Shown: in pieces, positions 342-34,670 of the stretch | How positions within the stretch are numbered: the first letter of the stretch is position 1 | Layout of the letters: each line of letters starts with the position of its first letter | From: Candidatus Jorgensenbacteria bacterium | GTDB taxonomy: Bacteria; Patescibacteriota; Minisyncoccia; UBA6257; GWB1-50-10 | Direction: 5' to 3' | DNA: 64,000 bases | NCBI GenBank assembly: GCA_030648515.1 | Contig: JAUSHK010000001.1 | Coordinates: 9,688 to 73,687 of the forward strand | Position numbers and translations under genes: made by a program | Notes under the pieces: generated by a model | Database searches by the model: none | The model's input: only the letters and a program-made list of their open reading frames with translations | What the model was told of the DNA's origin: nothing

Positions 342-387
342 GTCAGGTCTTTTGTATCCATATGTATCCATAGGTTTTTTGGGAGAA

Positions 388-875: not shown

Positions 876-978
876 GGAATCAGGATAGCGTGAGCGGGAG
901 GGAGGGCGTAAGACGGGAACTATTGCCGTTTTTGGCAACCAAAGTTCGGGTCCTATCCCCTTGTAGGCACAGGACAAA

Positions 979-1004
979 CAAAAAAGCCTCATTTTATTGA
1001 GGCT
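979..1004 (-). terminator. Rho-independent terminator after the AbiEii-like gene
   Basis: Minus strand reads GAGCCTCAATAAAATGAGGCTTTTTT. Confidence 0.45.
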
Positions 1005-1496
1005 CATTTGACTATCTAGTCAGCTGGCTAGATGGGATGAGTTTCGAATGACGAACTGGGCAAGTTGCTTTGATGAGCCGGAGAAAAGTTTAGAGGTAAT
1101 GCGGGGTTTGCTCGGTTCATGAGTTTAGGGTAGCAGGAGGAAAATACAGAAGAAAGTATGGGGTTTGTGTTAGAAATGACAAGTCACATTTCAATAGGCT
1201 CATCACTGTAAGCTAAACTTTGAGGACAATAGTGCTACGTCTTTCCCATTATTTCTTTTCTCCAAAGAACATAAAATCTTCTTCTCCGTCTCTGGCGTCC
1301 AATATATTTTCAACTTTTCTCTCGCTCTCGGGATAAGAGATTCTGTGATAACAAGCCTCTTTCTGAATCGTCAAATTTGCGAATATTGGCGCAAATTACT
1401 TCATCAATATCCAGTATCTTACTGTCAATTATGTTCATACATATTTGATTCCTATTCAAAATTGAGAACTATCTTAATCTGCTATGAGATATTATT

Positions 1497-2927
1497 TCAA
1501 TATTTTGTATCCACATAGTATCCGTGCCTGCCTCCGCAAGGATAGCCGTTTTTGTCCTTGTGTTTTCTTATGCTGTTGTTTTGCTTGCTTTTTGTAAATT
1601 TTTTTCCGCAATAACTGCATTGATAAATATATTTCGGCCCAAACGTTGAACGTCTTGGTTTTCTTGTTCCGCGTCGACGCGGGGCAGCAGTTGGCCTATT
1701 TGGGTCAAACAAATATGGATTTTCTGGCTTTTCGCCGGCTTTAGATAGTTCTATCGGAAATTGTGGCGTAAACTTTTCGTCCGTGTTTTGTATTGACTCG
1801 ATTTTCGCTGCCACAAAACATCTGATGCCAGGTCGGTTTTCCCCGCCACTTCTGTTAAATACATAGAAATATTCTTGCTCCGCGCCATCTTTCCTTTGTA
1901 AATATTTTAATGAATACGGCTCGACTATTCTGTCCGAACCTTTGTAGCGGACTTTTAAAAGAGTTTGTTCTCGTCCTGCTTTCATTATTGGCTCTCTCAA
2001 TTCGGGGCTAAAATAGGCAAATTGCGCAAAGCCGTTATCAGGATAAAAGCCGAACAGCACCTCTAAATCAGCAATAAATAAATTTATCGCTTCATCCACA
2101 CCAAACAAAAATTGTTTTGTGCATATAACAGTTTTGGACCAGAACTCCTTAAAATAATCAAACGGCATTTTGCTTAGAATATTTTTCAAAATATGCGGAT
2201 TTCTTCCAAAAATGGTTTTTTTCACAAAAGTTCTGACAACCTCTTCCTTGTTCAATTCACCTCCCAAAAGTTTTATTGAATACGCATAATCAAACAAATC
2301 GGGGGCATGCTGTCTCTGTAAAAGACACTTCAATTTCGTGGCAATAATTTCTTCAAGTTTCATGCATCGAATTTTGCAGGCAACTTTGTCCGCATCCGAA
2401 TATGGATGGATTAGGTCAACAGTTTGAACTGGTAAAAGGACTTTATCAAAACGGGTAATATCCATTGAAATTTTGATTTTAATATGCTCCGAATTTCCAT
2501 AAAAATCTTTAAAATAAATTCGTGCTTCATAAACGCGCAACCCAGGTATTGGAGCTTCGGTAGCCGAAAACTTTTCTTCAATTTTATTTTGTTCTTTTAT
2601 AAAGGAAACGCCAGCTTTTTCCTGAATAAAATCGCATACTTTATTTATTTCATCAAGCAAGACAACTTGGGTTATATCGCCAGGGATTCCAAAATCCAAA
2701 TCGGACGAAAAACGAGTGTTTTTGAAGTATCCCTTGCGCAAAGCATTCCCGCCCTTCAAAAATATGGTGTTTTTTAGACTGCTGGTTGTAAAAATCCCAA
2801 AAATCAACCATCCAAAAACATAATCCCGCTCAACATTTGCTTCGTGGATTTCGAATTCTTTTGCCTTAGTTTTAATTTCATTCTTGGAAATCATGACAGA
2901 ACCTGGTATTTTCCATATTTGAATCAA
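1497..2927 (-). CDS. AbiEii/DUF1814-type nucleotidyltransferase fused to a WYL-like domain and a C-terminal zinc ribbon
   Basis: N-terminal LKGGNALRKGYFKNTRFSSDLDFG matches the AbiEii NTase signature (hLKGGtAL...RfSeDiDf). Around residues 310-390, RIVEPYSLKY...EYFYVF...IRCFVAAKIESIQ fits the WYL-domain pattern. After a basic linker (RRRGTRKPRRS) the C-terminus reads YQCSYCGKKF...H...PCGGRH. Confidence 0.7.
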   Translation of the reverse strand: MIQIWKIPGSVMISKNEIKTKAKEFEIHEANVERDYVFGWLIFGIFTTSSLKNTIFLKGGNALRKGYFKNTRFSSDLDFGIPGDITQVVLLDEINKVCDFIQEKAGVSFIKEQNKIEEKFSATEAPIPGLRVYEARIYFKDFYGNSEHIKIKISMDITRFDKVLLPVQTVDLIHPYSDADKVACKIRCMKLEEIIATKLKCLLQRQHAPDLFDYAYSIKLLGGELNKEEVVRTFVKKTIFGRNPHILKNILSKMPFDYFKEFWSKTVICTKQFLFGVDEAINLFIADLEVLFGFYPDNGFAQFAYFSPELREPIMKAGREQTLLKVRYKGSDRIVEPYSLKYLQRKDGAEQEYFYVFNRSGGENRPGIRCFVAAKIESIQNTDEKFTPQFPIELSKAGEKPENPYLFDPNRPTAAPRRRGTRKPRRSTFGPKYIYQCSYCGKKFTKSKQNNSIRKHKDKNGYPCGGRHGYYVDTKY

Positions 2928-3007
2928 ATACTTTTTTACTACAAAAATTACTAATCAGAGCTAAAAAAGCAATCACAAAATATGGCAGCTGATGTATGAA
3001 TCTAAAT

Positions 3008-3808
3008 TTACATAATAACTGAGGATAATTCCTTTCCTCGTTGGATCAATCTTTTTACGTCTTCCTCTTGAATATTCTCTTTTGGATGGGCGCAGTAATT
3101 TCCAATTTTAAATAGGCTCTCTAATTCAGATTTCTGGATTGCATTTATGACTGTTTCCTGCTCCAATGTATTAAGAATATCACTTACGCCAGGCTTCTTT
3201 TTTGACGGAGGATTGACCCCAATCGTTAAGGAGCGACTATTCACTACGGTTAACAAATGTCTTTCAAGCGCAACACGGGCAATTACCCCGCTTGCTCTAA
3301 TAGCAACTTCAATGAGTGGATAAGATTTCAATATTTCTTCGGCACTGGTGAATTCATCACAAGCAACGTTGAAACTAAGTTGAGTAACAACTTCAAGCTC
3401 TCTTGAACAAACTTCCTCCGCTAAACTTAAAAGTAATGAGCGAGCTCTCTGAAAGTATTCGGAAAAAAGGCCAAAACATTCTTCTCCTTGCACAAACGGT
3501 GGCCACGTAATTTTCTTCCCATAGCAATTAGTTCCAATATTAATATATTGTTGAATATCTGTAAATGATCTCCGACCTTGTTTATCATTTTTGGAACTAT
3601 CATAACAACCATCGAATTCTTCGACGCCGGAAAAGTGCTGTTGGACCAATAATTCTCTTACTCCGCGATACCATCTCTGTCCCTTAACAGATAAATCTGG
3701 CTGAACAATCTCGCCCTTACTTAATCTTTTGGCCAAGCTAAAGACCTCATTTGCTAATTCCTCTAATTCTTGAGCTCTTTTTGTTAATTTTATCAACTTT
3801 GATTTCAT
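3008..3808 (-). CDS. DUF4145-domain protein, co-operonic partner of the AbiEii-like gene
   Basis: C-terminal ~95 aa (AIRASGVIARVALERHLL...SDILNTLEQETVINAIQKSELESLFKIGNYCAHPKENIQEEDVKRLIQRGKELSSVI) follows the DUF4145 pattern R..LE..L...L...I..L...I...L..iGN..AH...i..ed. It lies 80 nt upstream of the AbiEii-like gene on the same strand. The N-terminal half is unrecognised. Confidence 0.55.
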   Translation of the reverse strand: MKSKLIKLTKRAQELEELANEVFSLAKRLSKGEIVQPDLSVKGQRWYRGVRELLVQQHFSGVEEFDGCYDSSKNDKQGRRSFTDIQQYINIGTNCYGKKITWPPFVQGEECFGLFSEYFQRARSLLLSLAEEVCSRELEVVTQLSFNVACDEFTSAEEILKSYPLIEVAIRASGVIARVALERHLLTVVNSRSLTIGVNPPSKKKPGVSDILNTLEQETVINAIQKSELESLFKIGNYCAHPKENIQEEDVKRLIQRGKELSSVIM

Positions 3809-4004
3809 ATAGCCTCGATGACTGATTTTTGCATATTCTTAAATCTTCAAGATTACCTTGATTTTGAGAAAATGTCTCAGACTACTAATGAGTTATAATT
3901 ATGAGGATGCCAAACGCGCAGTGGAGTTCTCATCCACAATTCGTTTGTAAGCATTTAAAACAATATCCATAACCATTCTGTTGGCCAGATGCAGTCTTAA
4001 TATA

Positions 4005-4038
4005 TTGAGGAATTATATTCTTTCTAATTTATTCCTCA
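4005..4038 (-). terminator. Hairpin terminator overlapping the stop of the PHP-ATPase gene
   Basis: TGAGGAAT...ATTCCTCA inverted repeat followed by a T-run on the minus strand. Confidence 0.45.
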
Positions 4039-6920
4039 GGAAAACTGTACTTTTGTTCGCGCTTCTGAAATGCTTCCTTACCACCCTCTAAAATCTCACA
4101 CACATGTTGCCGAATGCCCTTTCGGAACAAAATTGCCGGCTGCTGTGTTGCGCTCAGTTCAAAGGCGTTTTCGAGAGCACCCGAAACGTACTCGAAGTGA
4201 TACTTTTTGTTATCTCTGCCGACCTCTTGCCCAGACTGATTTGCAACGACAGACTCTTCTCCGTCTGCTCCGACAACAAGGTTAGGGTTATGTGTTACAA
4301 TAATAATTTGTCGCTTGAGCTTCTTCTTCTTTAAGAATTCTACTAGATCATCGTAAACAGAACGGTTGTCGAGATCGTCCTCGGGTTGGTCAAGTAGAAT
4401 CGGCCATTCTTCGTTGCTCAAGTTAATGAGTAATTGCAAAAGAACAAGCCCCTTCTTGCCGGGCGACATTTTATCGAGAGAGTCATTTTTGTAAAAAATC
4501 CGGAAATCAAGGTAAAAATAATCATCGAGCAACTTTGTCACAGCATCCTTTGCTTGGCGATTTTTCACTGTGTTAATGGTACCGTCAATCAGTCCATCAA
4601 ACATAGCAGTGATATTTGTTAAATGTTTTGTTGGATCATATCGATATACAAATTCTTCGCCCCATTCCGCCTCAGCGATAACTCGTTTAAGGTCGCGCTT
4701 ACTGAGAAATTCCTTGATTACATTTGAATTAAATGAGTCGTCATTAAAGCCGACATGCACGCCCAAGGTAATATCACCGAACCTGCTTTCAAATGTTTTA
4801 AACTCATTCCGTATTCCTTCATATTTGGCGATGATCTGCTTATAGGAGTCAATTATTGCTTTGGCTTTCTTCTCATGGGAAGTCTTTTTTGCTTTGAGAT
4901 TGTTTCTCTTAATAGCGATCTCATTCAGCTTCTGCTGTTCTTTATTGATGGCGTCGGATTTCTGCCGCAATTCTGATTGCAATTGAACTTTTGCAAGCAA
5001 CGGACCAAGTTCTGCGTTGATTCTTGTTAATTCGAAATTGTGTGTTGTGATTTTTGCATCAACTGCATTAAGCAAATTGGAAATAGCTGATTCCACTGTT
5101 GGCGCAAAGGAATCCAAAGCTTTTAGCTCCGCCTTGAATTTTGCCTTTATGTCTGTGTCATTGAGATAGGTTTCGTATTCACTGGTAATGGACTGTATTC
5201 CGGTGACTTGTTCAAGTATAATTGAGCGCAAATTCCTGACCATCTTTTTATCTTCTTCAAGATGAGAAACTTGAGCATTTATAGTTTTTTCTTTGTCTAC
5301 CAATTCTCCATACTGTATGATCTGTGCATCAGAAAGTCCGGATTTTAATTTTATCTCATCTGCCTGTTTCTGTAGTGTTTGAATGTAATTTTCAATACCT
5401 TTCTCGTCGCCAGTCTGTTTTAGTTCTTCTTCTATCTTTTTAATATCATCCTGATCAGAGAATAGCTCATTAATCGCGGTAGGAATGGACTTCGCCGTTG
5501 TCTTGATTTCTCGAACCGTTTCCTGATATTTCTCGTTAATAGTTAGATCTTGCAGAATTACACTTAAAACGAATTCGTTAAGGGCCTCACGGCTGCGAAT
5601 ATTGGATTCCGATAGTGTATTAAGATACCGTTGAGGAATATAAAGTATTTTCCGTTCTTTTGATTCGCCTTCTGCGGAATCCGTTGGTGCATTCAATAAC
5701 GTGCGTTGACCATCCAGCCAGGTAACTTCAAAATTAAAACCCGGTGAATTGTCGAAGTCGTATTGTACCGGAATTCCGCTGTCCACCATCCGATTTTTTA
5801 CTTCCTGTTTATCAATGGTTTTTGCTATATAGTAAAGCAAAAGCGACTTGCCAGTTGATTTACCACCGATGATGGTCGTGAGATTTTGATTAATTTCAAT
5901 CGGATCACTACCGAATTTTATATCACTACTATTATCTAAAAAACGCACTTTATCAATAATGAAATATGACTTCTTTTCCTCAGGTCTCTGCAACCCAACA
6001 AAAATGCGTTGTTCCGGCTCATAGATGATCTGTTTTAGGCCCTCAAAAGTGGGGTCTGCTTTAATCCACAAATAATTGCCATCCTGATCGCTTCTACCAT
6101 AATCATGCAACGACCTTGCATCAGAACTGATATGGCAACAAAATTTTGCAACCAATGACGTGTTGCTTTTTATGTATTCAGAAATCACTATTGATGATCT
6201 GTGATGTTGAGACTGAAGAAGGTTTATCTTTTGATGATTAAAAATATCAGCCAAGTGAGTTCTATCCATACTCGTTCTTGCCTGAAATAATCCGTTAGTG
6301 CTGTTGCAGTGAGGGTAAATTACTATGCCATTGTTTCTTTTTGCCTCATCGAGAATATCCTTGATGTCTGCGGAAGTGGTGGTAAGCACTCCATTGGTAT
6401 TTGTACGGTTATTAATATTAAATTTCACTAAAAACGCATGGATTCCATCAGAAAAAGTTGATTTTTGATAAAGCTTGTCCGGGAAGAACAAGAGCATGTG
6501 AATCCCTTGGCAGTTTATCTCAACACCGGGGATTACTTTGCATTGCGTCCTTTTGGAGTACTCGATAAAGGTATCAAGCAATTGCTCATCAAAATAGTTG
6601 TGATCCGTGATACCGATGCATTCAAGCCTTGGGTGAAAGACATCCAAATATGCAAAAAGGTTGCGAACGTAATTCTGACAGCGCTCGTTTTTCGCAAGAT
6701 TGGCATCGTTGAAGTACGTTTTTGAATCGTACAAAATGGCATTTGTTTCGCCACCAACTTTGCCAATGAATTGCTGCCATCCAGCGAGATTCACCTCCTT
6801 AATACTTTTGTAGTATTGGTCAAGCGACACATAATCATCGTCCAAGATTGTTTGCACATGCAAGTCCCACTGTCGCCAAACTGATCCTTTTGGATATGGA
6901 AAATTATTCATAAGATTCAA
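4029..6920 (-). CDS. PHP-domain phosphoesterase fused to an SMC/Rad50-like ABC ATPase (PplA/TrlF-like)
   Basis: N-terminal PHP motifs DLHVQT, GITDHN, IPGVEI, HMLLFFP. Then Walker A GGKSTGKS, a coiled coil of several hundred residues, a signature-like SPGKKG, Walker B ILLDQPEDDLD and an H-loop VTHNP. It sits 79 nt downstream of hsdMS on the same strand. Confidence 0.7.
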   Translation of the reverse strand: MNLMNNFPYPKGSVWRQWDLHVQTILDDDYVSLDQYYKSIKEVNLAGWQQFIGKVGGETNAILYDSKTYFNDANLAKNERCQNYVRNLFAYLDVFHPRLECIGITDHNYFDEQLLDTFIEYSKRTQCKVIPGVEINCQGIHMLLFFPDKLYQKSTFSDGIHAFLVKFNINNRTNTNGVLTTTSADIKDILDEAKRNNGIVIYPHCNSTNGLFQARTSMDRTHLADIFNHQKINLLQSQHHRSSIVISEYIKSNTSLVAKFCCHISSDARSLHDYGRSDQDGNYLWIKADPTFEGLKQIIYEPEQRIFVGLQRPEEKKSYFIIDKVRFLDNSSDIKFGSDPIEINQNLTTIIGGKSTGKSLLLYYIAKTIDKQEVKNRMVDSGIPVQYDFDNSPGFNFEVTWLDGQRTLLNAPTDSAEGESKERKILYIPQRYLNTLSESNIRSREALNEFVLSVILQDLTINEKYQETVREIKTTAKSIPTAINELFSDQDDIKKIEEELKQTGDEKGIENYIQTLQKQADEIKLKSGLSDAQIIQYGELVDKEKTINAQVSHLEEDKKMVRNLRSIILEQVTGIQSITSEYETYLNDTDIKAKFKAELKALDSFAPTVESAISNLLNAVDAKITTHNFELTRINAELGPLLAKVQLQSELRQKSDAINKEQQKLNEIAIKRNNLKAKKTSHEKKAKAIIDSYKQIIAKYEGIRNEFKTFESRFGDITLGVHVGFNDDSFNSNVIKEFLSKRDLKRVIAEAEWGEEFVYRYDPTKHLTNITAMFDGLIDGTINTVKNRQAKDAVTKLLDDYFYLDFRIFYKNDSLDKMSPGKKGLVLLQLLINLSNEEWPILLDQPEDDLDNRSVYDDLVEFLKKKKLKRQIIIVTHNPNLVVGADGEESVVANQSGQEVGRDNKKYHFEYVSGALENAFELSATQQPAILFRKGIRQHVCEILEGGKEAFQKREQKYSFPEE

Positions 6921-6999
6921 TTTGTTATCTGCCTAAAAAGTGGTTTTATCAAAAAGTTGTACTTTTTATTTCTTTGATTATCTTGATGAGCCTATTTCC

Positions 7000-9429
7000 T
7001 CATTCGCCCCAAACTTCTGCGATTTTTGATTTAATCTTTTGCTCAGATAATTCAATGATTCTACGATTACCGTCAACGAAATCTTGCTCTTTTTCAATCT
7101 CAGTCAGAATTCTTAATTGTTCGTCAACTGTTGGTTTCGGGATATTAATGTTGATGCAATCATCAATACTAAAAGAAACATTTGATGTGCCATACATGAG
7201 ATTAGTGAAAAGATTGTCTTTTTCTTGAGAAAATAAATAGTAGAAGAATTTAGGAATTACTTGTTTATTTTTTGGCAACATTGCCATCAATATGTTACCA
7301 ACAGCAAACTTCCCCTCTACATAATAGATTCTCTTGAGAGTTGCTTTTCCGTGCCCAGCCGATGAAATCAACGGAATGATAATTGCCTTTTCATCAAACT
7401 GATAAGAATCTGAAGTAGAATAAGATTCTCCAGTGGTAACCAGAGGATATTTACCGGGTTTTGTTTTCTCTATCGGAGTTAGTCCCTTCTCCAATTGGAA
7501 ATAATTTCCCAGCTTCACTTTTTGCCACGTAGGATCAATTTTTATGTAGGGACAGTATTCGGTCAAAACACGCTTTGCGCTTCTAATTAAGTGATAATCA
7601 TGTTTGAAACTCACTTGAACAGACTGCGGAGGTATCGGAATTTCTAGTTTAATTAAATCATTGAAATTTAATGTTTGTCTAACAGCTCCTGCCGCTAACA
7701 AATTGATTTGTTCAAGCCCTTTTCTGCTTTTTAGCAAGTAATAAAGATACTCTGGTACCAATTGGGAGCCATCTTTTATTTTAAAGACCGTGTACATGGG
7801 GCTTACTAAGCCCCGCATCCCATTAGAGTTGATTGCTATGGATCCAACATTTATACGGGCGGGGTTGTAGACAAAATTATTTACATCAACCACCTTATAG
7901 TTATCAAGATTTCTTGAGCTAACTGTTTCATTAAAATAGTCGTCTGAGTTAATTAGTCCCTGCTCATTAGAAACTGAGAAAACAATAGGACTCTCCAGAT
8001 TGTTTTTCTTTTTTACTTCTTCAAGATGTTCAGCAAGAGGTTCCAGTGGAAAGGCAAGATCGCGAGATACGCCAATTTTATATTTATTACCTCTTAAAAT
8101 ATAATCCCCATCGCTTTTAATATCTTCTTTCGTTACACCGAAGACGGAAGCATGATGTGAAAACCAACTTTTAATTTTGGTTGGACTATTTTCTGTTACT
8201 TCCTTATAGGAACATATAGTTTCCAGGACTTTTGGAATGTCGTTTTTCTCTATAACTCTTTTTCTATTCCCACCCTCAAATCCATCAAAGCTTATGTCTG
8301 CAAATAAAATCCAAGGGGATAATTTTGCCAGCTGCTTATCAAAAAAAAGTATGCTTGTTTTAACGTCGGCGTATGGCTTAAAAACTCCAGGATGTAAAGA
8401 TACTACAGCATAAACTATGTCATCTTTAATAAGCATTTTCCTAAGGGCAATATATGCAGCGGAATTCTTATTTGATACTACTCCGTCTGGTACAATTACA
8501 GCACCCTTACCCTTTGAATTAAGATGTTCAGTAATATAATCAACAAATAGTATTTCTGAACGATTTGCCCGTACCATGAAGCGTTTATGCGGACGGATGC
8601 CGCCCTTTGGTGTCATGAATGGAGGATTTGCCATAATGACATCAAAACGCTCATTCCATTTTTCTTCGCTTGTGAGTGTGTCGTATTCGTGAATATTAGG
8701 GCTTGGGAAGCCGTGTAGGTACATATTAACGCGGGACAGCTTTACCATATCCGGCGAAATATCATAACCTGTCAAATTGGTCATCAAGCGCTTTTTCTCG
8801 TCAGGAGAAAGAGGCCGGTCTTTGGTTGCCTTCAAAATATGCTTGTAGGCAGAGACTAAGAATCCGGCCGTGCCGCATGCGGGGTCAAGGATGGTCTCAC
8901 CTTTTTTCGGTTCAACTACCTCAACAATGAAATCAATAATGTGCCGCGGCGTACGGAATTGTCCAGCGTCGCCCTGCGATCCAAGAACCGAAAGCAGATA
9001 TTCAAAAGCGTCTCCTAAATTTTCGCTATGATCATAAGTAAACCCATTGATCTCTTTCAGAAATAGGTTGAGCGTTTCCGGGTCACGGAATGGGAGGAAG
9101 GCATCTTTGAAAATGTCTCTGAAAAGTTGTTGTAGGTGCGGATTTTGAGACATCTTGGTGATTGCCTCACTATAGAGATTGAGCCTATCATGTCCGCCTA
9201 GTTTTGGATCCATTAATTTGTTCCAGGCATATTTCTCATAACCATTCGTAAAAAATTGTGCCTTGCCTCTGGGCAACGACATGGATTCCTTATCCATATC
9301 ATCCATGAATTTGTAAATCAGCGCAGTAGTTATTTGCTCAACCTGTGCCTTTGGATCGGGAATTTTACCAACAAGAATATCCCGCGCTGAATCAATCTTC
9401 TTTTTTATCTCTTGGGTCAACATGGTCAC
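7000..9429 (-). CDS. hsdM: Type I R-M fused HsdM-HsdS subunit (N6-adenine methyltransferase plus two target-recognition domains)
   Basis: The methyltransferase half has GTAGFL (SAM binding) and NPPF. The C-terminal ~400 aa carries two HsdS-like TRDs, each ending in a conserved spacer (LEIPIPPQ...; NINIPKPTVDEQLRIL). Its ATG overlaps the hsdR stop (ATGA). Confidence 0.8.
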   Translation of the reverse strand: MTMLTQEIKKKIDSARDILVGKIPDPKAQVEQITTALIYKFMDDMDKESMSLPRGKAQFFTNGYEKYAWNKLMDPKLGGHDRLNLYSEAITKMSQNPHLQQLFRDIFKDAFLPFRDPETLNLFLKEINGFTYDHSENLGDAFEYLLSVLGSQGDAGQFRTPRHIIDFIVEVVEPKKGETILDPACGTAGFLVSAYKHILKATKDRPLSPDEKKRLMTNLTGYDISPDMVKLSRVNMYLHGFPSPNIHEYDTLTSEEKWNERFDVIMANPPFMTPKGGIRPHKRFMVRANRSEILFVDYITEHLNSKGKGAVIVPDGVVSNKNSAAYIALRKMLIKDDIVYAVVSLHPGVFKPYADVKTSILFFDKQLAKLSPWILFADISFDGFEGGNRKRVIEKNDIPKVLETICSYKEVTENSPTKIKSWFSHHASVFGVTKEDIKSDGDYILRGNKYKIGVSRDLAFPLEPLAEHLEEVKKKNNLESPIVFSVSNEQGLINSDDYFNETVSSRNLDNYKVVDVNNFVYNPARINVGSIAINSNGMRGLVSPMYTVFKIKDGSQLVPEYLYYLLKSRKGLEQINLLAAGAVRQTLNFNDLIKLEIPIPPQSVQVSFKHDYHLIRSAKRVLTEYCPYIKIDPTWQKVKLGNYFQLEKGLTPIEKTKPGKYPLVTTGESYSTSDSYQFDEKAIIIPLISSAGHGKATLKRIYYVEGKFAVGNILMAMLPKNKQVIPKFFYYLFSQEKDNLFTNLMYGTSNVSFSIDDCININIPKPTVDEQLRILTEIEKEQDFVDGNRRIIELSEQKIKSKIAEVWGE

Positions 9430-11939
9430 ATGTACGAGTTAAGTGAAACGTAATCCTTTACGTAATCCGGCACTACCTCAATCCATTTATTGAGTTCTCG
9501 TAAATCAGATAGAGTAAGCTTTGGGTTCGTCGCAAGCCTGGGATATTCTCCTCTCTCAATAATATCGCGTATCTCATTATCGGTTATGTATGCTTTAAGA
9601 TAATTTTTGAGTGGCAAAACATATTTACTCTCAGGTTTATGGATTGCAATAAATTTCTCGAATTCTTCTTCCAAGAGCTCATCTTTAGACTTGAAGCGAA
9701 CAATTCCTCCAAGAATTTTCTCAATAAACTCCCGCAAACTTATACGACGGTCAGATTTTATTGCTTTCCTCAGTTTTTCTAGATTGAAGTAGTCCTCTGG
9801 TTTATCAAATATTTCACCACGAACGTAATCCTCAACAGTCTCCAAATCACCTTCTTCATACTTTTTTTGAATGAACGGATCATTCTTGACCGTTGATTCG
9901 AATTTCTCAAACAGCTTCCTATCAATCTTCATCCCCTCAAACCCAATAGTCTTTTCAGCGAAGGTTTTCAGCGGGTCTGGTTGGAAGACTGAAACTTCAT
10001 TAATGGGCACACCGTCCACGTCACCGCCTCCTGCTCCTGTAATCGCGGGCAATCGGATGATTTCGTCATAGTTGTACTTTTCCTCGAAATACTCACAGTT
10101 CGCGAAAAAGTCAAAAAGCTTGAACTTTTCTTTCTCTACCTTCGCTTCTTGAATGCTATCGGCATTCTTTTCTTTGTGCACGAAGGAATATCTGCGGGTG
10201 CCGCGCCCTTTAATTTGAATAAAATCTGTCGGCGAAAAGATCGGGCGCATCATGCAAAGATTCAGAATATCCTCGCAGTCGTATCCGGTGGTCATCATGC
10301 CTACGGTGACGCATACCCTCGTCTTGCTGGACTGGTACCCCTCCAAGAATCTTGTTTGCCCATTGAGATTGTTATTGGCAAAGCTTACCGTGAACTGCTG
10401 AGCATCCGGGATGTTTGATGTAATCTGTACTGCAAAATCGGAATTGTATTTTCCTGGATACAACAGGTCTACAAACTGGTTTAGAATCTGGGTAATTTTC
10501 GATGCATGTTTTTGACTCACACAAAATACGATGCTCTTGCCGATTTCTCCGGTAATCGGGTCTCGTAAGGCATTTTCGAAAAAGGTTTTGCAAAAAATCT
10601 GGTTGGTTTTATCCGAGAAAAACTTCTTCTCAAAGTCGGTGTAGAAAAAGATTTGCTCTTCTTCTCTGCCTTCTTCTGTTTCTACCATGAGAGCATAGCC
10701 CTTTTCCGAGAGAAGTTCAGTTGTGATCTCTGTTCTTGCGTCGGCCACAATTGGATTAATCAGATAACCGTCTTTTACTCCATCAAGGAGGCTGTAGTGG
10801 AACGTCGGCTCACCAGATTCGCAGCCAAATGTTTTATAGGTATCCAAAAGCTGCCTGCGTTCCCATGCTCTTGGGTCCCTGTCATTGAGTTTCTCAGGAT
10901 CAATGCCTTTCAGGTAATTTTTGGGAGTTGCGGTAAGTCCCAGCTTGAAGCCTACGAAATATTCAAAAACTGCACGACTGTTACCGCCGATAGAGCGGTG
11001 GGATTCATCGGAAATGAGGAGGTCGAAATCTGTTGGAGAGAAAAGATGTTGATACTTGTTATTGAAGGAGAGGCTTTGAACGGTAGAAACAACAATCTCC
11101 GCTTTGCGCCAATCATCACGATTTTCTTTGTAGATAACCGTCGTGTAATCCTCGGCGAGCCATTTTTTGAAATTCTTCCATGCTTGTTGTTCCAGTTCAA
11201 TCCGGTCAACCAGGAATAGAACTCTCTTTGCATTGCCCGTCTTGAGAAATAACTTGATTATGGCGGCTGAAACAAGCGTTTTACCCGTTCCGGTTGCCAT
11301 CTCAAAAAGGTAGCGGTCATGACCCTTGGCCGCCGATTCTTGGAGTGCGTGGATGGCGCGAAGCTGGTAGGGGCGGAGAAACTTCAAACCCTCCGTCTCA
11401 GCGAATTCCTTCCGTTCCGCCTCGCTCGCCCAACGGGGATCATTTTTATATTCCAGCTTCTGCGTGAGGACAATATAATCCTCTTCGATCTTCTCGCCTG
11501 CAAGCCGCTTGTGGTCAGGTTTAAACTGCTCAACATGCACAAGGGAGTCAGGAGTGGGAAAAGTTACAATGACCGCAGGATTGCCGTGTTCCAGATCCCA
11601 AAAGTAATGGAGGTTGCCATTGGAAAGAATGACAAAGCGGACATTTAGGGATTGAGCATAGCGCCGGGCTTGCTCTTTACCATCCAAAGGATTTTTGTCC
11701 TCAGATTTGGCTTCCAATACGGCATACGGAAATCCATTTTTGTCTAAGAGCAAAAAATCAACATACCCATTTTTTGTTTTTTCAAAATCATTTCCAAGGG
11801 CATCGATGTCCTTTTTAGTCAGCTTAACATTGCTTTCCAACGCGACATTCGCCTTGCCGTCTTCATCATCAAAAAACCTCCAGCCGGCTTTCTGGAGAAT
11901 GTTGTTGATTTTTATGCGAGCTCTGGCTTCTTTTTTCAT
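9426..11939 (-). CDS. hsdR: Type I restriction enzyme HsdR (endonuclease/helicase subunit)
   Basis: N-terminal PD-(D/E)xK nuclease (DFLLLD...AVLEAKSED). SF2 helicase motifs MATGTGKT, DESH and GLTATP. Confidence 0.85.
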   Translation of the reverse strand: MKKEARARIKINNILQKAGWRFFDDEDGKANVALESNVKLTKKDIDALGNDFEKTKNGYVDFLLLDKNGFPYAVLEAKSEDKNPLDGKEQARRYAQSLNVRFVILSNGNLHYFWDLEHGNPAVIVTFPTPDSLVHVEQFKPDHKRLAGEKIEEDYIVLTQKLEYKNDPRWASEAERKEFAETEGLKFLRPYQLRAIHALQESAAKGHDRYLFEMATGTGKTLVSAAIIKLFLKTGNAKRVLFLVDRIELEQQAWKNFKKWLAEDYTTVIYKENRDDWRKAEIVVSTVQSLSFNNKYQHLFSPTDFDLLISDESHRSIGGNSRAVFEYFVGFKLGLTATPKNYLKGIDPEKLNDRDPRAWERRQLLDTYKTFGCESGEPTFHYSLLDGVKDGYLINPIVADARTEITTELLSEKGYALMVETEEGREEEQIFFYTDFEKKFFSDKTNQIFCKTFFENALRDPITGEIGKSIVFCVSQKHASKITQILNQFVDLLYPGKYNSDFAVQITSNIPDAQQFTVSFANNNLNGQTRFLEGYQSSKTRVCVTVGMMTTGYDCEDILNLCMMRPIFSPTDFIQIKGRGTRRYSFVHKEKNADSIQEAKVEKEKFKLFDFFANCEYFEEKYNYDEIIRLPAITGAGGGDVDGVPINEVSVFQPDPLKTFAEKTIGFEGMKIDRKLFEKFESTVKNDPFIQKKYEEGDLETVEDYVRGEIFDKPEDYFNLEKLRKAIKSDRRISLREFIEKILGGIVRFKSKDELLEEEFEKFIAIHKPESKYVLPLKNYLKAYITDNEIRDIIERGEYPRLATNPKLTLSDLRELNKWIEVVPDYVKDYVSLNSYM

Positions 11940-12257
11940 AATAATACGGTGTAGCTTTTTGGGTTCAACTATGTCCGGTTAAGACTCTCTTCAAGGTATC
12001 CGTCAAGCTCAAATGTCAGTTTACACCGATAGTCCGCAATTATCAAAACACTTGGCATATCTTGAATTTGAGTGCCATGAACGGCACACGTAGGCAGAAA
12101 GATAATACTCACAAAAAATATAGAAATTGTTTTTGAATGTACGCAATAGAATCCTATAAGTAAAGCAAAAAATAAGGGTTAGACTTTAAAAATCAAGATA
12201 TAAAAATGGAAGCACTAATAATTGGATATCTGAACAATCTATTCGCGATGCACGAAA

Positions 12258-12298
12258 AGAAAAGGGTTGCTGATGTGCTTGCGATCAGCAACCCTTTC
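12258..12298. terminator. Bidirectional hairpin terminator
   Basis: AAAGGGTTGCTGAT...ATCAGCAACCCTTT, a perfect 14-bp stem. Confidence 0.5.
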
Positions 12299-12318
12299 GC
12301 ATGTTTAGGACCTCAACT

Positions 12319-13962
12319 CTAAAGCATGTTGATCAAACGTTTGGCTTCTTGCGTTGCGTTTGCCGCATACGCTTCAAAACTTTGCTGTCGCGCGAGTTTT
12401 CCATTGGAAAGAACGTAGATATCTGTGGCATGGAATTTTTCAAGAAAATACCGGTCGTGCGACACAAGAATGATAGTGCCCTCATAATGCGCAACCGCTT
12501 CTTCAAGAGCTTCAAGTGCCTCAAGATCGAGATGGTTTGTTGGCTCATCCAGCAAGAGCACGTTTGCCGAGAGTGCCGAGAAAAATGCAAACAGAAGCCT
12601 TGCCCTTCCACCTGGCGAGAGTGCGCCGATTTCTTTCTCAATTTCGGATGCCTTGAAACCGTATTTTACAGCCAAAGCATAAGCGTCCTGATTGGAAAGG
12701 CCCGCACGCTTTCTGAGAAAGTCCATTAAGGTTTGCGATCGAGGTAAGTTATCATGTTCCTGCATGAGATTACCCACAACGAGTGAGTTCCCTACTTCAA
12801 CTTGGCCACTGAGGGCTTCCAGTTCACCGTTGATGGCTTTGAGCAACGTTGATTTTCCGGAACCGTTTAATCCGAGGATAACAATCCGGCTACCGTAGGG
12901 AATTGCAAGAGATATCGGCCCAATTTGGAATCCGTCATCGGCATATCCAGCCACTACATCCTTAAGAACAATCTCACGGGACCCTTGAGGTTTTGTTGGT
13001 TGAATTTGGATACGAAACGCATCCCGCTCAATCGGCTTTTCCACAATCTCTATCTGCTCAATGCGCTTCTCGATAGCTTTAGCTACCTTTCCGGATTTTG
13101 ACGACTGGTCACGCTTGAATCCGCGAAGAAACTTGTCGTTGTCTGTCCCTTGGAAATGCGATCCCCGCATGGCAGCCGCCTTCTTATCTCTCACCGTCTC
13201 CGTGAGCCTTTTAATTTCTTCTTGTTGAGCTTCGTACTCTGCTCGTTGCCGTGCGCGTTCTTTTTCTTTTCTCACCAGATAATCGGAATACCTGCCGTTC
13301 GTAATGGTGAGTGTCCGCGTACGCCAGTCAATTTCAAATATTTTCCTTACCACCCGATTAAGAAAAAGCCTGTCGTGCGAAACAACGATACAAGCGGAAT
13401 CGGACTGCATAAGGAAGTCTTCCAGCCAGATGAGTGCGGGCAGATCGAGATTGTTCGTCGGTTCATCGAGAAGCAGAACATCGGGATCAGAAAGCAGTAC
13501 TCCTGCCATGAATACCTTGCTTTTTTGACCTGAGGAAAGGGCATTGATTTGTCCATTGCTTGATGCTCCGTGCAGGCCGAAGCCGGCAAGTGTTGCCTCC
13601 ATGCGGTGATCAAAGGCATAGCCATTCCTGCGTTCATACTCCGCCACCGCTTCCGGCGAATGTTCAAGACGTTCTTCAAGTACCCTGATGCCCGACACGC
13701 GCCGCAGGTATGCGCAAATCGTTTCATTGCTAACAAGACTCGTGTCTTGCGGCATATAGCCGATAACTGCGTTCTTCTTCACCGTAACCGACCCGCCGTC
13801 CGGCTCAACAATCCCCGCTAAAATCTTGAGAAGTGTGGACTTGCCGGCACCGTTATTGCCAACCAAACCCACTTTCTGGCCTTTCTCCAATGAAAAAGAA
13901 ACGTCCTCAAGGACGGTGATCGTGCCATACATTTTATGGATGTGTTCAGCTTTCAGTTCCAT
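12319..13962 (-). CDS. ABC-F family ATPase (two ABC domains, EttA/Uup-like translation factor)
   Basis: Two Walker A motifs (GNNGAGKST, GLNGSGKST), signature motifs and two LLLDEPTN Walker B motifs. The track ORF starts at 14091. An AAGGAGG RBS lies 8 nt upstream of the internal ATG at 13960-13962 (MELKAEH...), which is taken as the true start. Confidence 0.85.
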   Translation of the reverse strand: MELKAEHIHKMYGTITVLEDVSFSLEKGQKVGLVGNNGAGKSTLLKILAGIVEPDGGSVTVKKNAVIGYMPQDTSLVSNETICAYLRRVSGIRVLEERLEHSPEAVAEYERRNGYAFDHRMEATLAGFGLHGASSNGQINALSSGQKSKVFMAGVLLSDPDVLLLDEPTNNLDLPALIWLEDFLMQSDSACIVVSHDRLFLNRVVRKIFEIDWRTRTLTITNGRYSDYLVRKEKERARQRAEYEAQQEEIKRLTETVRDKKAAAMRGSHFQGTDNDKFLRGFKRDQSSKSGKVAKAIEKRIEQIEIVEKPIERDAFRIQIQPTKPQGSREIVLKDVVAGYADDGFQIGPISLAIPYGSRIVILGLNGSGKSTLLKAINGELEALSGQVEVGNSLVVGNLMQEHDNLPRSQTLMDFLRKRAGLSNQDAYALAVKYGFKASEIEKEIGALSPGGRARLLFAFFSALSANVLLLDEPTNHLDLEALEALEEAVAHYEGTIILVSHDRYFLEKFHATDIYVLSNGKLARQQSFEAYAANATQEAKRLINML

Positions 13963-14133
13963 AGATAATTCCTCCTTATTGTATCCCGGATTTCTCATCC
14001 AGGAAACGTTGTTAATGTGCCGTCTCCCGATATCTGAAATACCAGGACCAGTCTCATTTTTACCAATATCCGCCGCCATTGTCAATGGCATAAAAAAGCA
14101 ACCCCCTTCATTCCAAAGAACGAGGGGGGTAGG

Positions 14134-14830
14134 TTACATACCACTTTTGATTGTTGATTTGTAATACTCTGTGAAATGATCTGACGCACAACTGCACTTT
14201 TTTATTTCCTGGGCTGCTGCTGAAAGTTTTTCGAGAAGGTTTACTGTTTTTCCCGTGTTGCTGCGGAATATCTCAAGCACACTCTTCATCGATTCCGGTT
14301 GCATTGAGATTGTGCTTGGCACACCGACGTCGTAATCGGTCACGGTGGCAATAGCTCCGTAACAGATACCAAGCTCACGGGCAAAGTAGCACTCCGGGTA
14401 CTGCGTCATGTTGACGATATCCCCGCCCACATAAGCATACATTTTGCTCTCGGCAATAGTTGAGAACCTTGGGCCTTGAATGACAACTACGGTGCCGTGA
14501 GCTTGGCATGGCATCTTCATCATTCCAAGTTCACGGGCAATTATGCTTCGCACATGTTCGCAGTAGGGCCTTGCCATCGGCAGGTGGATGAGCTGGCGGT
14601 CAATATCAAAACTGTCATCTCTTCCCCATGTGAGATTGATGAATTGGTCCGGAATCACGAATGTACCCGGTTCAATCTCTTTCCGAAGGCTGCCCACAAC
14701 ACACGTTCCGATGACGTGCCGCACTCCAAGCGACTTCAGTGCGGCAAGATTCGCTTTGTATGGCACCTTATGTGGCGGGTGAAGGTGGCAACCGCCGAAT
14801 ACTATATCCGGCAGCTTTCGGAAAACGTGC
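14134..14830 (-). pseudogene. mtnP: 5'-truncated S-methyl-5'-thioadenosine / purine nucleoside phosphorylase gene
   Basis: The product aligns to MTAP/PNP family 2 from about residue 68 of human MTAP onward (HVIGTCVVGSLR...IPDQFI...GPRFST.AES...GGDIVNMT...ELGICY...ATVTDYD). The ~65 N-terminal residues, including the phosphate-binding GxxGGSG loop, are absent. The reading frame dissolves at ~14790-14830, exactly where the recombinase remnant begins. Confidence 0.55.
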
Positions 14831-15936
14831 GAAAGGGACTCAAAGAGAAGCTTGCACAGGGATGGCTCCCCACAAGACCGCCGCTAGGTTATATGACTAT
14901 TGGCGAGAGTGGGCACAAGGTGCACGTCATTGATCCCGTAAAAGCTCCGCTTGTGCGGAAAATGTTTGAATTCTATGCAACGGGTGAGTATTCTCTCAAA
15001 AAACTAATGGACGTGATGTATAAAAACGGATTGCGTGCCCGCAGCGGCAAGATGGTTGTGAAATCAAGAGTGGCAACCCTTTTGAGCGACCCCTTCTATA
15101 TTGGCAAAATTCGGTACAATGGTTCCGTCCACCCCGGATCGCATGAATCGCTCATTTCAAAAGAACTATATGAGAGCGTGCAGCGAAGACTTCTTGGCAA
15201 AGCGATTCCCCGATTCAGAAAACATTTTCCGTTATTCAAATCGTTGATTCGGTGCGCCATTTGCTCTGGTCTGATAACCTGGGAGGTGAAGAAAGGACAT
15301 TGGTACGGGCATTGCAACGGGTACAGGGCTTGTACCGCGCGAAAGTATGTAAGACAGGAATCCATTGAGCAACAACTGATACCCTATTTTGATAAAATTG
15401 TGATTAGAAGCGAACGCTTGGTTAATTGGATTAAGCAGGGATTGAAGGAGAGTCATCATGACCGAATCGCCTATAGCTCGAGTGCGAGGGATGAGCTTGG
15501 CAAACGTTATGAGGCAACGCAGAAGCGATTGGATATGCTCTACGACGACAAACTGGATGGTAAGATATCAGAAGATTTCTACCAAAGGAAATTGGCCCAA
15601 TACACAGCCGAAAAAGAAGAAATCTTGAGTGGGCTCAAACGCCATGACGCTGCCAATACTAGCTATTATGAACTCGGAGCGTGCATCCTTGATCTTGCCT
15701 ATAGAGCAAGAGCCATGTTTACAGACCCAAATCGCGCCACCGTGGATCGTAGGGCGCTACTGAACGTTATTTTTTCGAACCTGACGCTTAAGGACGATAA
15801 ACTCAACGTTTTTTACACCAAAGCGTTCGAAATAGTGTCGGAAGTGGTTCCGCTGTGGAATGAGAAATTCGAACCTTCAGAAACCCGCGCCATTAAAGGG
15901 GAAAATGCAATTTTAGGTACCGCGCGTCCTGTTATG
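14770..15936 (+). pseudogene. Large serine recombinase remnant lacking the N-terminal catalytic domain
   Basis: The ORF 14476-15996 shows serine-recombinase homology only from ~14775, starting within the E-helix (ATAEYYIRQLSENVRKGLKEKLAQGW). It continues through the recombinase domain, a zinc ribbon (CAICSG...CNGYRAC) and a coiled coil. The first ~100 codons of the track ORF are antisense to mtnP and are not coding. The catalytic Ser region is absent. The 3' end reads through into tRNA-Gln. Confidence 0.6.
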
Positions 15937-16008
15937 CTGGGAGACCAGGATTCGAACCTGAATTCACGGCTTCAAAGGCCGCTGTCCTACCATTAGACGA
16001 TCTCCCAA
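15937..16008 (-). tRNA. tRNA-Gln(UUG)
   Basis: Manual fold: U1:A72 acceptor stem (TGGGAGA/TCTCCCA), G73 discriminator, D-stem GTCT/GGAC, anticodon loop CUUUGAA, T-arm TCAGG-TTCGAAT-CCTGG. U1:A72 with G73 matches the E. coli tRNA-Gln identity elements. Confidence 0.8.
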
Positions 16009-16068
16009 TTTTGAGCAATTTTACCACGAAATTTTTATTTTGGCTACTTAAAAGAGTATAATAAACTC

Positions 16069-16209
16069 ATGAGAAATAAAAACTGGTATCTCGGGTTTTT
16101 GGGTTTCTTGGGGTTCTGGGGAATCAGCGCGCTTTTCGCGCAGGACTGGCCCAACGCGGTTTGGATTATCTGGTTTGTCTGGTTTATTTATTTCTTCCGC
16201 CGCAAATAA
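16069..16209 (+). CDS. Small hydrophobic peptide (46 aa, MRNKNWYLGFLGFLGFWGISALFAQDWPNAVWIIWFVWFIYFFRRK)
   Basis: Below the ORF-track cutoff. Followed directly by a hairpin terminator. Speculative. Confidence 0.3.
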   Translation: MRNKNWYLGFLGFLGFWGISALFAQDWPNAVWIIWFVWFIYFFRRK

Positions 16210-16246
16210 AAAAGCCGCACTCGAATTAAATGAGTACGGCTTTTAA
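16209..16246. terminator. Bidirectional terminator between convergent genes
   Basis: AGCCGCACTC...GAGTACGGCT stem flanked by A/T runs. Confidence 0.45.
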
Positions 16247-16260
16247 ATATTTAGCGAGGA

Positions 16261-16956: not shown

Positions 16957-17056
16957 CTAACACCTCCATCCATATTTAAATGACAAATAACCTAATTTTT
17001 ATCTAATTAGATTATATATCGCTTTTTAAATTATGTCAACTAAAACACCGCAACAA

Positions 17057-31149: not shown

Positions 31150-34670
<3,521 letters not shown>

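Follow-up and report, generated by a model that had tools for sequence, protein, structure and literature searches.

How do two genes that have both lost their 5' ends come to stand head to head beside an intact tRNA gene? The initial annotation of this locus saw a 5'-truncated mtnP (MTAP/PNP) gene and a 5'-truncated large serine recombinase (LSR) gene abutting within ~50 nt next to tRNA-Gln, and attributed both losses to a single deletion at one boundary of a defence island. Here, we consider the joint, the ends of the island, and the intact relatives of both genes. The window, i.e., the whole 64-kb stretch of DNA analyzed, carries the features collected in Table 1.

Table 1. Features of the locus, in window coordinates; att sites are predictions.
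Feature	Position	Strand	Remarks
Intrinsic-terminator hairpin, GAGCCTCA-ATAAAA-TGAGGCTT plus T-run	984..1005	-	directly left of attL, 17 nt from the core
attL core, GCTGG	1023..1027	none	exact point at which the match to the uninterrupted LSR gene of L003 starts again
Orphaned LSR 3' end (P' arm), LARWDEFRMTNWASCFDEPEKSLEVMRGLLGS plus stop	1024..1122	+	P0001 residues 513-542, E=3e-7
AbiEii	1497-2927	-	low-GC defence cargo
DUF4145	3008-3808	-	low-GC defence cargo
TrlF-family AAA-like ATPase	4029-6920	-	low-GC defence cargo
Type I RM methylase/specificity fusion	7000-9429	-	low-GC defence cargo
HsdR-like helicase	9426-11939	-	low-GC defence cargo (whole block 1497..11939)
ABC-F, ribosomal-protection type, intact, 547 aa	12319..13962	-	last gene of the relatives' cassette
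mtnP/MTAP 3' fragment	14134..14778	-	residues ~76-289 of relatives; without the N-terminal GGSG phosphate-binding region
Junction microhomology, ATGTGGCGG	14770..14778	none	common to both homology blocks; proposed deletion joint
LSR 3' fragment	14770..15935	+	~residues 122-516 of P0001: helix E end, recombinase domain, zinc ribbon, C-terminal region
attR core, GCTGG	15936..15940	none	last bases of tRNA-Gln; B' arm with T-loop TTCGAA 10 nt from the core
tRNA-Gln(UUG), intact	15936..16007	-	antisense read-through by the LSR ORF
Putative attB, island removed, ...TCTAGTCAGCTGGGAGACCAGG...			
Putative attP, island ends joined, ...CCTGTTATGCTGGCTAGATGG...			

Two genes joined at a nine-nucleotide sequence

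On the plus strand, full-length LSR homologues align with the window copy from residue ~122 (MWRVKVATAEYY); codons 1-121, i.e., the entire catalytic domain, are missing, and the remaining frame is open throughout. The fragment is 76% identical in amino acids to P0001 (545 aa) over the best BLASTP alignment, contains PF07508 (E=2e-14, over the cut-off) and a PF13408 zinc ribbon that scores below its 25.3-bit cut-off (19.6 bits, E=0.0012) yet is correctly placed, and aligns to the NCBIfam XisF/Ccr models from model position ~109-141 on. Full-length homologues of the P0001 kind have the domain set Resolvase, Recombinase, and zinc ribbon. Nearly all of the 120 full-length homologues listed have PF00239, the N-terminal resolvase domain that supplies the catalytic serine (the exception, P0005, lies on a 1.3-kb contig); no match to this domain was obtained in the window LSR, in the rest of the window, or in the 3.1 kb to the left. 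A weak resolvase-like match at 34.5-34.9 kb is spurious, lying inside the 23S rRNA gene. We take the window LSR to be a gene fragment and not a functional member of its family.

On the minus strand, mtnP misses ~75 codons at its 5' end. Full-length relatives (289-292 aa), which have the GGSG motif, align from residue 73-76, the Pfam PNP_UDP_1 match starts at profile position 52, and the matches to the NCBIfam MTAP models begin no earlier than position 54-57, all of them scoring below the curated cut-offs (194.6 bits vs. 274.85 for TIGR01694; 207.6 vs. 306 for NF005876). The gene is, to judge from these matches, a homologous fragment and not a full MTAP member. The N-terminal halves of mtnP and LSR were not found within the window or in the 3.1 kb to the left. 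Both 5' truncations and the loss of the serine catalytic domain are thus as initially annotated, and that domain does not reappear elsewhere in frame in this region.

The two fragments are directly joined. Positions 12323-14778 form a block of DNA homology to the mtnP locus L234 (the closest intact locus, 75% nt), positions 14770-15940 a block of homology to the intact LSR gene of L003, and the two share exactly the 9 nt of ATGTGGCGG; the adjacency first proposed stands, whereas the spacing gives way to an overlap. This sequence codes for MWR on the plus strand and PPH on the minus strand. At the joint position, LSR homologues have TTC-ATGTGGCGG-GTG, and the reverse complement of mtnP homologues has CTT-(A/G)TGTGGCGG-AAT. 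With the genes diverging as observed, the copies are direct repeats, which is the arrangement that a simple deletion needs. The alignments establish that mtnP and LSR are joined at a 9-nt sequence carried in direct orientation by both parental gene families.

A chimeric assembly, with its false join at 14.77 kb or in the tRNA region, has to be weighed, as the source is a MAG and Logan contigs break within the tRNA-Gln gene at ~15980-15990. It is very improbable: the independent Logan assembly of run SRR13727527 has a 6603-bp contig with 100% identity across the joint, i.e., two assemblies are alike over 6.6 kb, an overlap of 9 nt is too short to create a path in a de Bruijn graph with k>=31, the P arm runs 50 nt into the tRNA in a single contig, and the arrangement of the window, with tRNA-Gln beside ftsXE and an LSR that runs into the tRNA gene, recurs in L093, where the LSR is intact. 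That the serine recombinase itself made the joint, by aberrant site-specific recombination at a pseudo-site, is barely credible. A recombinase gene is involved, and use of pseudo-attB sites is known for LSRs (PMC5937489), but the joint falls within the codons for helix E, at a distance of 1.17 kb from the att core, and resembles neither the GCTGG core nor the CTAGATGG arm nor the TTCGAA motif. An integration split of the SSV kind was also considered for the joint and rejected, the missing halves being absent and the true LSR split lying at the 3' end of the gene.

It is conceivable, though improbable, that the remnants were kept for a function: an LSR reduced to its DNA-binding domains could bind the att site or block integration, and/or the other remnant could act as a short protein of the MTAP kind. 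An in-frame ATG stands at 14770 in the LSR fragment, ~390 codons run on without stop or frameshift at the above identity to P0001, and NCBI annotates the 210-aa MTAP fragment as a protein; against this, the MTAP is without its phosphate-binding N-terminus, no promoter or RBS evidence was found for the remnants, a recent deletion explains the intact frames equally well, and recurrent truncated forms were not seen. Several homologues of 203-210 aa had suggested a recurrent mtnP truncation; P0194 (on L002), the only one with its DNA read, is an intact gene with a mis-called start. Please note that retained function would account for the intact state of the remnants, however the joint arose.

Ends of the island at tRNA-Gln

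As the initial annotation had it, the LSR ORF continues antisense through the 3' half of tRNA-Gln (GDQDSNLNSRLQRPLSYH), to a stop at 15996; it reads into the tRNA gene because attP would lie inside its own 3' coding end. The displaced end is found ~14.7-14.9 kb from the gene body, where the last 32 LSR codons lie orphaned at 1024-1119 behind the same GCTGG core, and L003 backbone homology extends to 1185. Core, tail, and the P arm at 15935 reassemble the uninterrupted L003 gene. The predicted attL and attR bracket an island of 14.9 kb. The recombinase can indeed be regarded as the integration module of this island, with attR at one boundary of the defence genes; the other boundary is the orphaned tail and not the direct repeat of the tRNA-Gln 3' end that had been expected. 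No such repeat beyond chance was detected in the window (blastn-short, repeat search), only the 5-nt core being common, and Infernal found no tRNA fragment at E<=1 in 1-17000. The direct repeat goes no further than the core because the integrase is a serine recombinase.

At the orphan tail, 15 nt separate the TTCGAA motif from the core; this distance is seen in five P' arms, and a distance of 10 nt in three B' arms. The attP of L003 is an imperfect inverted repeat centred on TG. In LSR systems, the distal (ZD) half-site motif lies 5 bp nearer the centre in attB than in attP (PMC3783163). With a minimal core and a 5-bp ZD shift, the att geometry of the tRNA-Gln island appears to be of the LSR type.

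In the functional sense, the locus is a tRNA island, as its low-GC cargo lies between two matching junctions, of which the one near the integrase is in the tRNA 3' end; it falls outside the Islander definition, which pairs an intact tDNA with a displaced tDNA fragment. There are two orphan LSR tails, the second of them 2.4 kb to the left of attL, and only one truncated LSR. The island is composite.

On the left flank, a terminator search found one site (0.4 expected), and this hairpin sits where the tRNA-Gln terminator would be once the island is removed. Two left arms are candidates for the native tRNA-Gln flank, i.e., 1007-1022, or 3878-3900 of L092.

The recombinase family and comparable elements

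The same layout is seen in L233, where an intact LSR reads into tRNA-Asn with its tail 11 kb upstream and the island cargo includes copper resistance. In 47 of the 120 best LSR homologues the C-terminal end is a tRNA-antisense peptide. On viral contigs, LSR relatives are all at <=43% identity and none has the mtnP cassette described below; several lie at contig ends or beside tRNA-Gln, tRNA-Ala, or tRNA-Asp. Comparison of these loci demonstrates that the predicted attP of the family falls within the ~30 final codons of the recombinase gene itself, so that integration leaves the gene body at attR and an orphan tail at attL. We offer a wider picture with little confidence, namely, a widespread, mostly Patescibacteria/CPR LSR family that targets tRNA 3' ends (Gln, Asn, probably others) and has its native tail (W-D/N-D/E-F-R-T...) swapped for a tRNA-antisense peptide; the swap could be a switch (full-length protein integrates, tail-less when integrated), orphan tails would record past integrations, and the window remnant might still bind attR.

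Targeting of tRNA genes has been considered exclusive to tyrosine integrases (PMC4383910), and the present locus provides clean sequence-level att sites for a tRNA-using LSR family. A search for orphan LSR tails would make it easy to tell where islands end in CPR genomes, and the family is a source of candidate attP/attB pairs whose target, the tRNA T-loop, is universally conserved.

Among known systems, phiC31, Bxb1, A118/LI, TP901-1, SPbeta, and SCCmec Ccr share with the window family the domain set of its full-length homologues and short att sites with few bases in common; the imperfect inverted repeat round a central dinucleotide and the distal half-site motif 5 bp nearer the centre in attB are also alike (PMC3783163). 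Unlike these classical LSR elements, the window family targets the 3' end of a tRNA gene and has attP inside its own coding sequence, and the window copy differs further in that the catalytic domain is wholly missing. In the myxophage Mx8 (IntP/IntX), as for the window LSR, only the C-terminal end is exchanged, with the catalytic body intact at attR. In archaeal viruses and plasmids, the "suicidal" tyrosine integrases of the SSV type have their att site within the integrase ORF, so that integration splits or alters the gene (PMC7253208), and they likewise target tRNA genes. The enzymes of SSV-type elements and Mx8 belong to the tyrosine recombinases, which are unrelated and use long identical att cores, in contrast to the serine recombinase and 5-nt core of the window; the window protein thus stands outside the SSV type, which has the tyrosine recombinase fold, and only the principle of an att site in the own ORF is common. 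The tRNA islands of the Islander/TIGER kind, with tyrosine integrases, resemble the window island in an integrase gene that lies beside the tRNA 3' end and points towards it, a preserved tRNA, defence or resistance cargo, and island arrays at one tRNA; the far end of the window island, however, is marked by an integrase gene fragment, without a displaced tRNA fragment or long direct repeat.

The mtnP cassette and the origin of the joint

Intact mtnP genes were found in relatives (e.g., L234), as anticipated at the outset, belonging to an accessory cassette and not to a lone housekeeping neighbour. The cassette comprises four genes, for a Cys-rich 63-aa protein, a radical-SAM/SPASM peptide maturase, mtnP, and a ribosome-protection ABC-F. 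The same four occur in L002, L007, L008, L009, and L012 with differing flanks, which makes the cassette look like accessory cargo, of the sort that islands of this family bear (e.g., the copper resistance of L233); L234, whose contig is cut inside the radical-SAM gene, has radical-SAM, mtnP, and ABC-F in an order that agrees. In the window, only the ABC-F is intact. It scores 425.3 bits with NF000355 (cut-off 380) over residues 1-513, as a full-length member does, and 334 against a cut-off of 800 with the producer-type NF000171, and it has its own promoter-like site (14056-14085) and Shine-Dalgarno sequence. The relatives' maturase has many weak matches to RiPP maturase families, all below curated cut-offs (best TIGR04136, 106.7 bits vs. 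400), and the 63-aa ORF has no family match and a conserved CGxxGCCPTVE motif. We consider the maturase probably RiPP-type and the ABC-F resistance-type; MTAP in the cassette could plausibly scavenge 5'-deoxyadenosine. At this level, i.e., in its genes alone, the relatives' cassette resembles antibiotic/RiPP clusters with ABC-F self-resistance (TlrC/CarA/OleB/SrmB type) and orphan immunity genes.

The cassette was not found beside an LSR in any relative examined, so that it is placed among the island cargo only by its position between attL and attR. A GTDB scan with the ABC-F, for an empty site or closer relatives, returned matches of <=71% identity only, with no LSR or RM nearby. A metagenome scan with the Band-7 neighbour gave loci that are not syntenic with tRNA-Gln; only L122 and L161 have dnaX and then tRNA-Gln. 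On viral contigs, the cassette gave distant radical-SAM matches only. As a weak check for a maturase from the same assembly, no MDO855... accession occurs among the 10 NCBI-sourced matches checked (120 listed), most matches being without any accession.

We favour, as the probable account, one slippage-type deletion of ~3 kb between divergent neighbours, which would have killed both cassette and integrase and left a dead integration module at the tRNA-proximal end of an LSR island at the tRNA-Gln 3' end. In the ancestral island the cassette would have stood immediately 5' of the LSR gene, in divergent orientation, and a RecA-independent deletion between the two ATGTGGCGG copies would have taken out mtnP codons 1-~75 and LSR codons 1-121, along with the maturase, the small ORF, and the LSR promoter/upstream ORF; since mtnP belongs to a four-gene cassette, the radical-SAM gene and the small Cys-rich ORF must have gone with it. 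Thereafter, the island would have been unable to excise by itself, fixed in place because it is without an integrase. The phosphorylase and the presumed peptide-maturation pathway would have been lost, leaving intact the ABC-F, which has its own promoter, and the defence genes. The deletion looks recent because both remnants keep open frames, and a small immobilising event of this kind is most likely ordinary genome decay. Short-homology deletions between direct repeats (slipped mispairing, RecA-independent) occur in bacteria. The window joint resembles them in its 8-9 nt direct repeats, the single copy kept, the lack of filler DNA, and a reconstructed span of a few kb; unlike in documented cases, its parental arrangement is reconstructed and not observed.

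Two orphan tails with one truncated LSR imply at least one other loss event, and a multi-step origin of the joint is therefore possible, with a distinctly smaller chance. A chromosomal mtnP-ABC-F fragment would have moved into the island and replaced the LSR 5' region, through two illegitimate joints (mtnP/LSR at 14770; HsdR/ABC-F near 11940-12260) or through nested integrations followed by several deletions. This would agree with the complex history of the island, with the non-island-looking contexts of the cassette in all relatives found, and with GC and GC3 of ABC-F and mtnP, which are like those of the host chromosome and unlike those of the low-GC defence cargo. It requires at least two additional breakpoints, however, and the 9-nt direct repeats favour a short-range deletion; all single-inversion models worked through fail, as they set the tail at 1024 against the LSR body in orientation, whereas in the window the two point the same way. 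The mtnP-ABC-F fragment is single-copy (Logan contigs run unbranched through both of its ends), so that copy-in by template switching would also need the original to be lost. The single deletion of the initial annotation, with its 9-nt direct-repeat microhomology, is thus the best and most economical explanation, and, as the island is composite, not a proven one.

Composition was tried as a discriminator and is uninformative, ABC-F, mtnP, and LSR all being host-like. A tandem duplication of a chromosomal cassette gives the right joint; it was rejected, as it needs two more deletions and conflicts with the tRNA-Gln/ftsXE linkage.

Under the single deletion, the organism would have lost MTAP and a probable peptide-maturation pathway and kept the linked ABC-F as the only survivor of the cassette, which is the pattern expected of an orphan immunity gene.

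The junction of two truncated genes

The initial annotation had flagged a junction of two 5'-truncated genes, and both truncations are borne out. The 210-aa product of the mtnP ORF (MDO8556856.1, on a 123,922-bp contig of a Candidatus Jorgensenbacteria MAG) matches the PNP_UDP_1 and MTAP equivalog models from model position ~52–57 onwards only, with all MTAP/PNP model scores below the curated cut-offs; alignment with relatives of 289–292 aa starts at their residue 73–76, and in the in-frame sequence upstream (…GGCHLHPPHKVPYKANL) similarity is gone before PPHK. A domain profile search of the large serine recombinase (LSR) ORF found no Resolvase domain; it gave a Recombinase match and, weakly, a zinc ribbon, and the ORF aligns with full-length LSRs (512–563 aa) from about residue 122, MWRVKVATAEYY. 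The recombinase 3' end running into the opposite-strand tRNA-Gln was likewise correctly described, the tRNA overlapping the end of the ORF.

The junction itself is real: two independent DNA alignments meet there, one to the closest intact mtnP–ABC-F locus (L234, 75% nt) and one to the closest intact LSR locus (L003, 77% nt), and a second assembly is identical across it. The two blocks share nine bases, ATGTGGCGG, found as TTC-ATGTGGCGG-GTG in LSR homologues and, reverse-complemented, as CTT-(A/G)TGTGGCGG-AAT in mtnP homologues; because the two genes lie on opposite strands (mtnP minus, LSR plus), the 9-nt copies are direct repeats. A single copy is left at the joint and filler DNA is absent, the hallmark of a deletion at short homology between two divergent genes. 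That the joint is an assembly artefact is very improbable: a de Bruijn graph artefact cannot arise from a 9-nt overlap, and the independent Logan assembly of run SRR13727527 has the same joint, on a contig identical to window positions 9388–15990. The best reading of the joint is the scar of a microhomology-mediated deletion, which disabled both the phosphorylase gene and the island integrase; as a phenomenon, this is ordinary decay.

Features of the island and of the rest of the window (window coordinates unless stated)
Feature	Position	Strand	Remark
Second attL-type junction	L092 3750-3900 = about -1416 to -1290	+	2.4 kb left of first
536-aa ORF, 60-aa ORF, XRE-type HTH gene	388-874; L092 2100-3710		between the two tails, operon-like
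attL core	1023-1027		GCTGG
Orphan LSR tail	1027-1116	+	last ~30 LSR residues
attL–attR interval	1023-15940		14.9 kb
Defence cargo	1497-11939	-	all genes on this strand
ABC-F, NCBI call	12319-14091		590 aa
Homology to L234	12323-14778
mtnP fragment	14134-14766	-
Homology to L003	14770-15940
LSR ORF	end 15996	+
attR core	15936-15940		GCTGG
tRNA-Gln(UUG)	15936-16007	-	overlaps end of LSR ORF
Release factor gene	21475-22194		239 aa
5S rRNA	30948-31062
23S rRNA gene	31157-34658		3502 nt
Group I intron	31452-31670		inside 23S rRNA gene

Integration at tRNA-Gln

The last residues of full-length LSR homologues match a detached stretch 13.7 kb leftward of the LSR fragment, and homology to the L003 DNA ends at 15940 and restarts at 1023, with GCTGG (5 bases) common to both places.

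Arms of the attachment sites
Site	Left arm and core	Right arm
attP (L003)	…GCGCGTCCTATATT-GCTGG	CTAGATGGGACGACTTTCGAA…
attR (window)	…GCGCGTCCTGTTAT-GCTGG	GAGACCAGGATTCGAAC… (tRNA)
attL (window)	…TTTGACTATCTAGTCA-GCTGG	CTAGATGGGATGAGTTTCGAA…

The dyad symmetry of attP is best when centred on the TG within the core. In each of the five P' arms seen, TTCGAA is 15 nt away from the core, and in each of the three B' arms seen, the T-loop motif of the tRNA (TTCGAA/CTCGAA) is 10 nt away. In LSR attB sites the zinc-ribbon-domain motif is shifted 5 bp inward relative to attP (PMC3783163), and the 15-nt versus 10-nt spacing here is the same 5-bp inward shift. Dyad centre and spacings all fit LSR att sites. 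The match of the arms and this LSR-type geometry together mark this as a genuine LSR integration at the very 3' end of tRNA-Gln; its attP sits within the recombinase's own reading frame. Integration swaps the native LSR tail for an antisense-tRNA peptide, GDQDSNLNSRLQRPLSYH. A leftward-directed terminator hairpin stands 17 nt left of the attL core, the position expected for the tRNA-Gln terminator in the empty site.

The layout recurs. Among the 120 best homologues, 47 LSRs end in the …DSN… antisense-tRNA read-through peptide, 42 terminate at the core, and ~24 have the native tail, W-D/N-D/E-F-R-T. An intact LSR on L233 runs into tRNA-Asn and has its tail 11 kb upstream in the same orientation, i.e., the complete split-gene layout, with copper-resistance genes and a TIR protein as the cargo between; another (L093) runs into tRNA-Gln beside ftsX/ftsE, neighbours that the tRNA-Gln of the window also has; and distant relatives on viral contigs lie at contig ends or beside tRNA-Gln, tRNA-Ala, or tRNA-Asp. 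A tRNA 3'-end target and an intragenic attP are both unusual for LSRs. C-terminal exchange upon integration is known for Mx8 IntP. SSV-type tyrosine integrases are known to have their att site within their own ORF (PMC7253208). The word "tRNA" is absent from the text of a large survey of LSRs and their att sites (PMC10083194). The SSV-type and Mx8 enzymes are unrelated to LSRs. The window enzyme belongs to the LSR family, and its att geometry is in keeping with LSR rules. We consider a tRNA-targeting, self-splitting LSR family with tail relics a modestly novel variant that merits systematic survey.

The composite island and the origin of the joint

The island carries genes for a 476-aa AbiEii-domain protein, a DUF4145 protein, a TrlF-family AAA-like ATPase (475 bits, cut-off 350), a type I RM methylase/specificity fusion, and an HsdR-like helicase, followed by ABC-F and the mtnP and LSR fragments. 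GC is 0.375–0.395 in the low-GC part from AbiEii to the methylase and 0.436 in HsdR, and averages 0.46 in the 35 ORFs right of the tRNA.

A Logan contig (L092), 100% identical to window 1–2460, reaches 3.1 kb further left. At window coordinate -1416 it holds another GCTGG + CTAAATGGGACGAGTTTAGAA… site, oriented like attL and followed by an intact 41-codon LSR tail, LAKWDEFRMTNWSNCFEDPETAMKQIRQLLDLSIQDSRNVV. Between the two tails, the 536-aa ORF has no family match; the HTH gene has homologues on the LSR contigs L003 (65% aa) and L004 and matches the end of L003 at 79.5% DNA identity, and the 60-aa ORF weakly resembles (E=1e-7) a small ORF just upstream of the L003 LSR. Past the second tail come a 216-aa ORF and dnaX. 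The island is composite: a single attR and a single truncated LSR go with two attL-type junctions. One or more recombinase genes have thus been lost completely, and more than one decay event has occurred. On two other CPR metagenome contigs (L122 6593–8471, L161 18437–19436), tRNA-Gln(UUG) comes directly after dnaX and is oriented the same way; in the window genome, dnaX lies ~3.3 kb left of the island array, convergent with tRNA-Gln.

In several CPR genomes (L002, L007, L008, L009/L010, L012), mtnP occupies third place in a conserved set of four genes. The first encodes a 63-aa protein that carries a CGxxGCCPTVE motif, and the second a radical-SAM/SPASM enzyme that matches RiPP peptide maturases best, always below cut-off; mtnP (MTAP) is followed by an ABC-F above the curated cut-off of the ribosomal-protection family. 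The L234 contig is cut within the maturase gene, leaving the last three visible. Flanking genes differ in each locus. The cassette looks like an accessory, probably peptide-modifying set with a self-protection gene, possibly a RiPP-like cluster with self-resistance, in which MTAP may clear 5'-deoxyadenosine. In the window, ABC-F is the sole intact cassette gene, with a promoter-like site of its own (TTGACA, 18 nt, AAAAAT); a hairpin follows the mtnP stop. The maturase and small ORF are absent from the window and the 3.1 kb to its left, and none of the 10 NCBI-sourced maturase homologues checked bears an accession of this assembly. The NCBI record starts ABC-F at 14091; going by relatives and by the Logan gene call, the protein begins at 13962 and has 547 aa. 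The longer call is probably over-extended, because the promoter-like site and the Shine-Dalgarno sequence fall within its extra 43 codons.

Deletion, inversion, duplication, and circle-reinsertion models were worked through for the joint. Single-inversion models were rejected, as they would leave the orphan tail facing the wrong way. Most economically, the cassette was cargo of the island, divergent from the LSR gene and just upstream of it, and a single deletion of about 3 kb, from one 9-nt repeat to the other, would have taken the 5' end of mtnP, the maturase and small-ORF genes, the region upstream of the LSR, and LSR codons 1–121. An ordinary chromosomal cassette should not fall between attL and attR. 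In support of the single deletion, the cassette is accessory in nature, sister islands carry resistance-type cargo, the repeats are direct, and the ABC-F/mtnP fragment is single-copy. Short-homology deletions depend on proximity, which also counts in its favor. Against it, cassette and LSR occur together in no relative found, among cassette relatives or in viral contigs searched for both, and the composition of ABC-F and mtnP is host-like. A multi-step rearrangement starting from a normal island and a distant chromosomal cassette requires, in any model, two or more additional illegitimate joints, although the composite island does attest more than one decay event at the locus. Because of those events, we hold the single deletion to be only somewhat probable and keep the multi-step origin as a rather unlikely alternative.

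Other features of the window

A 16S rRNA gene was not found in the window; the group I intron within the 23S rRNA gene scores 51.1 bits, with a cut-off of 50. At only 239 aa, the called release factor gene (PCRF and RF-1 domains) is short, its PCRF match beginning at profile position 99, and the N-terminal part may lie in another frame, by analogy with the programmed frameshift of prfB.
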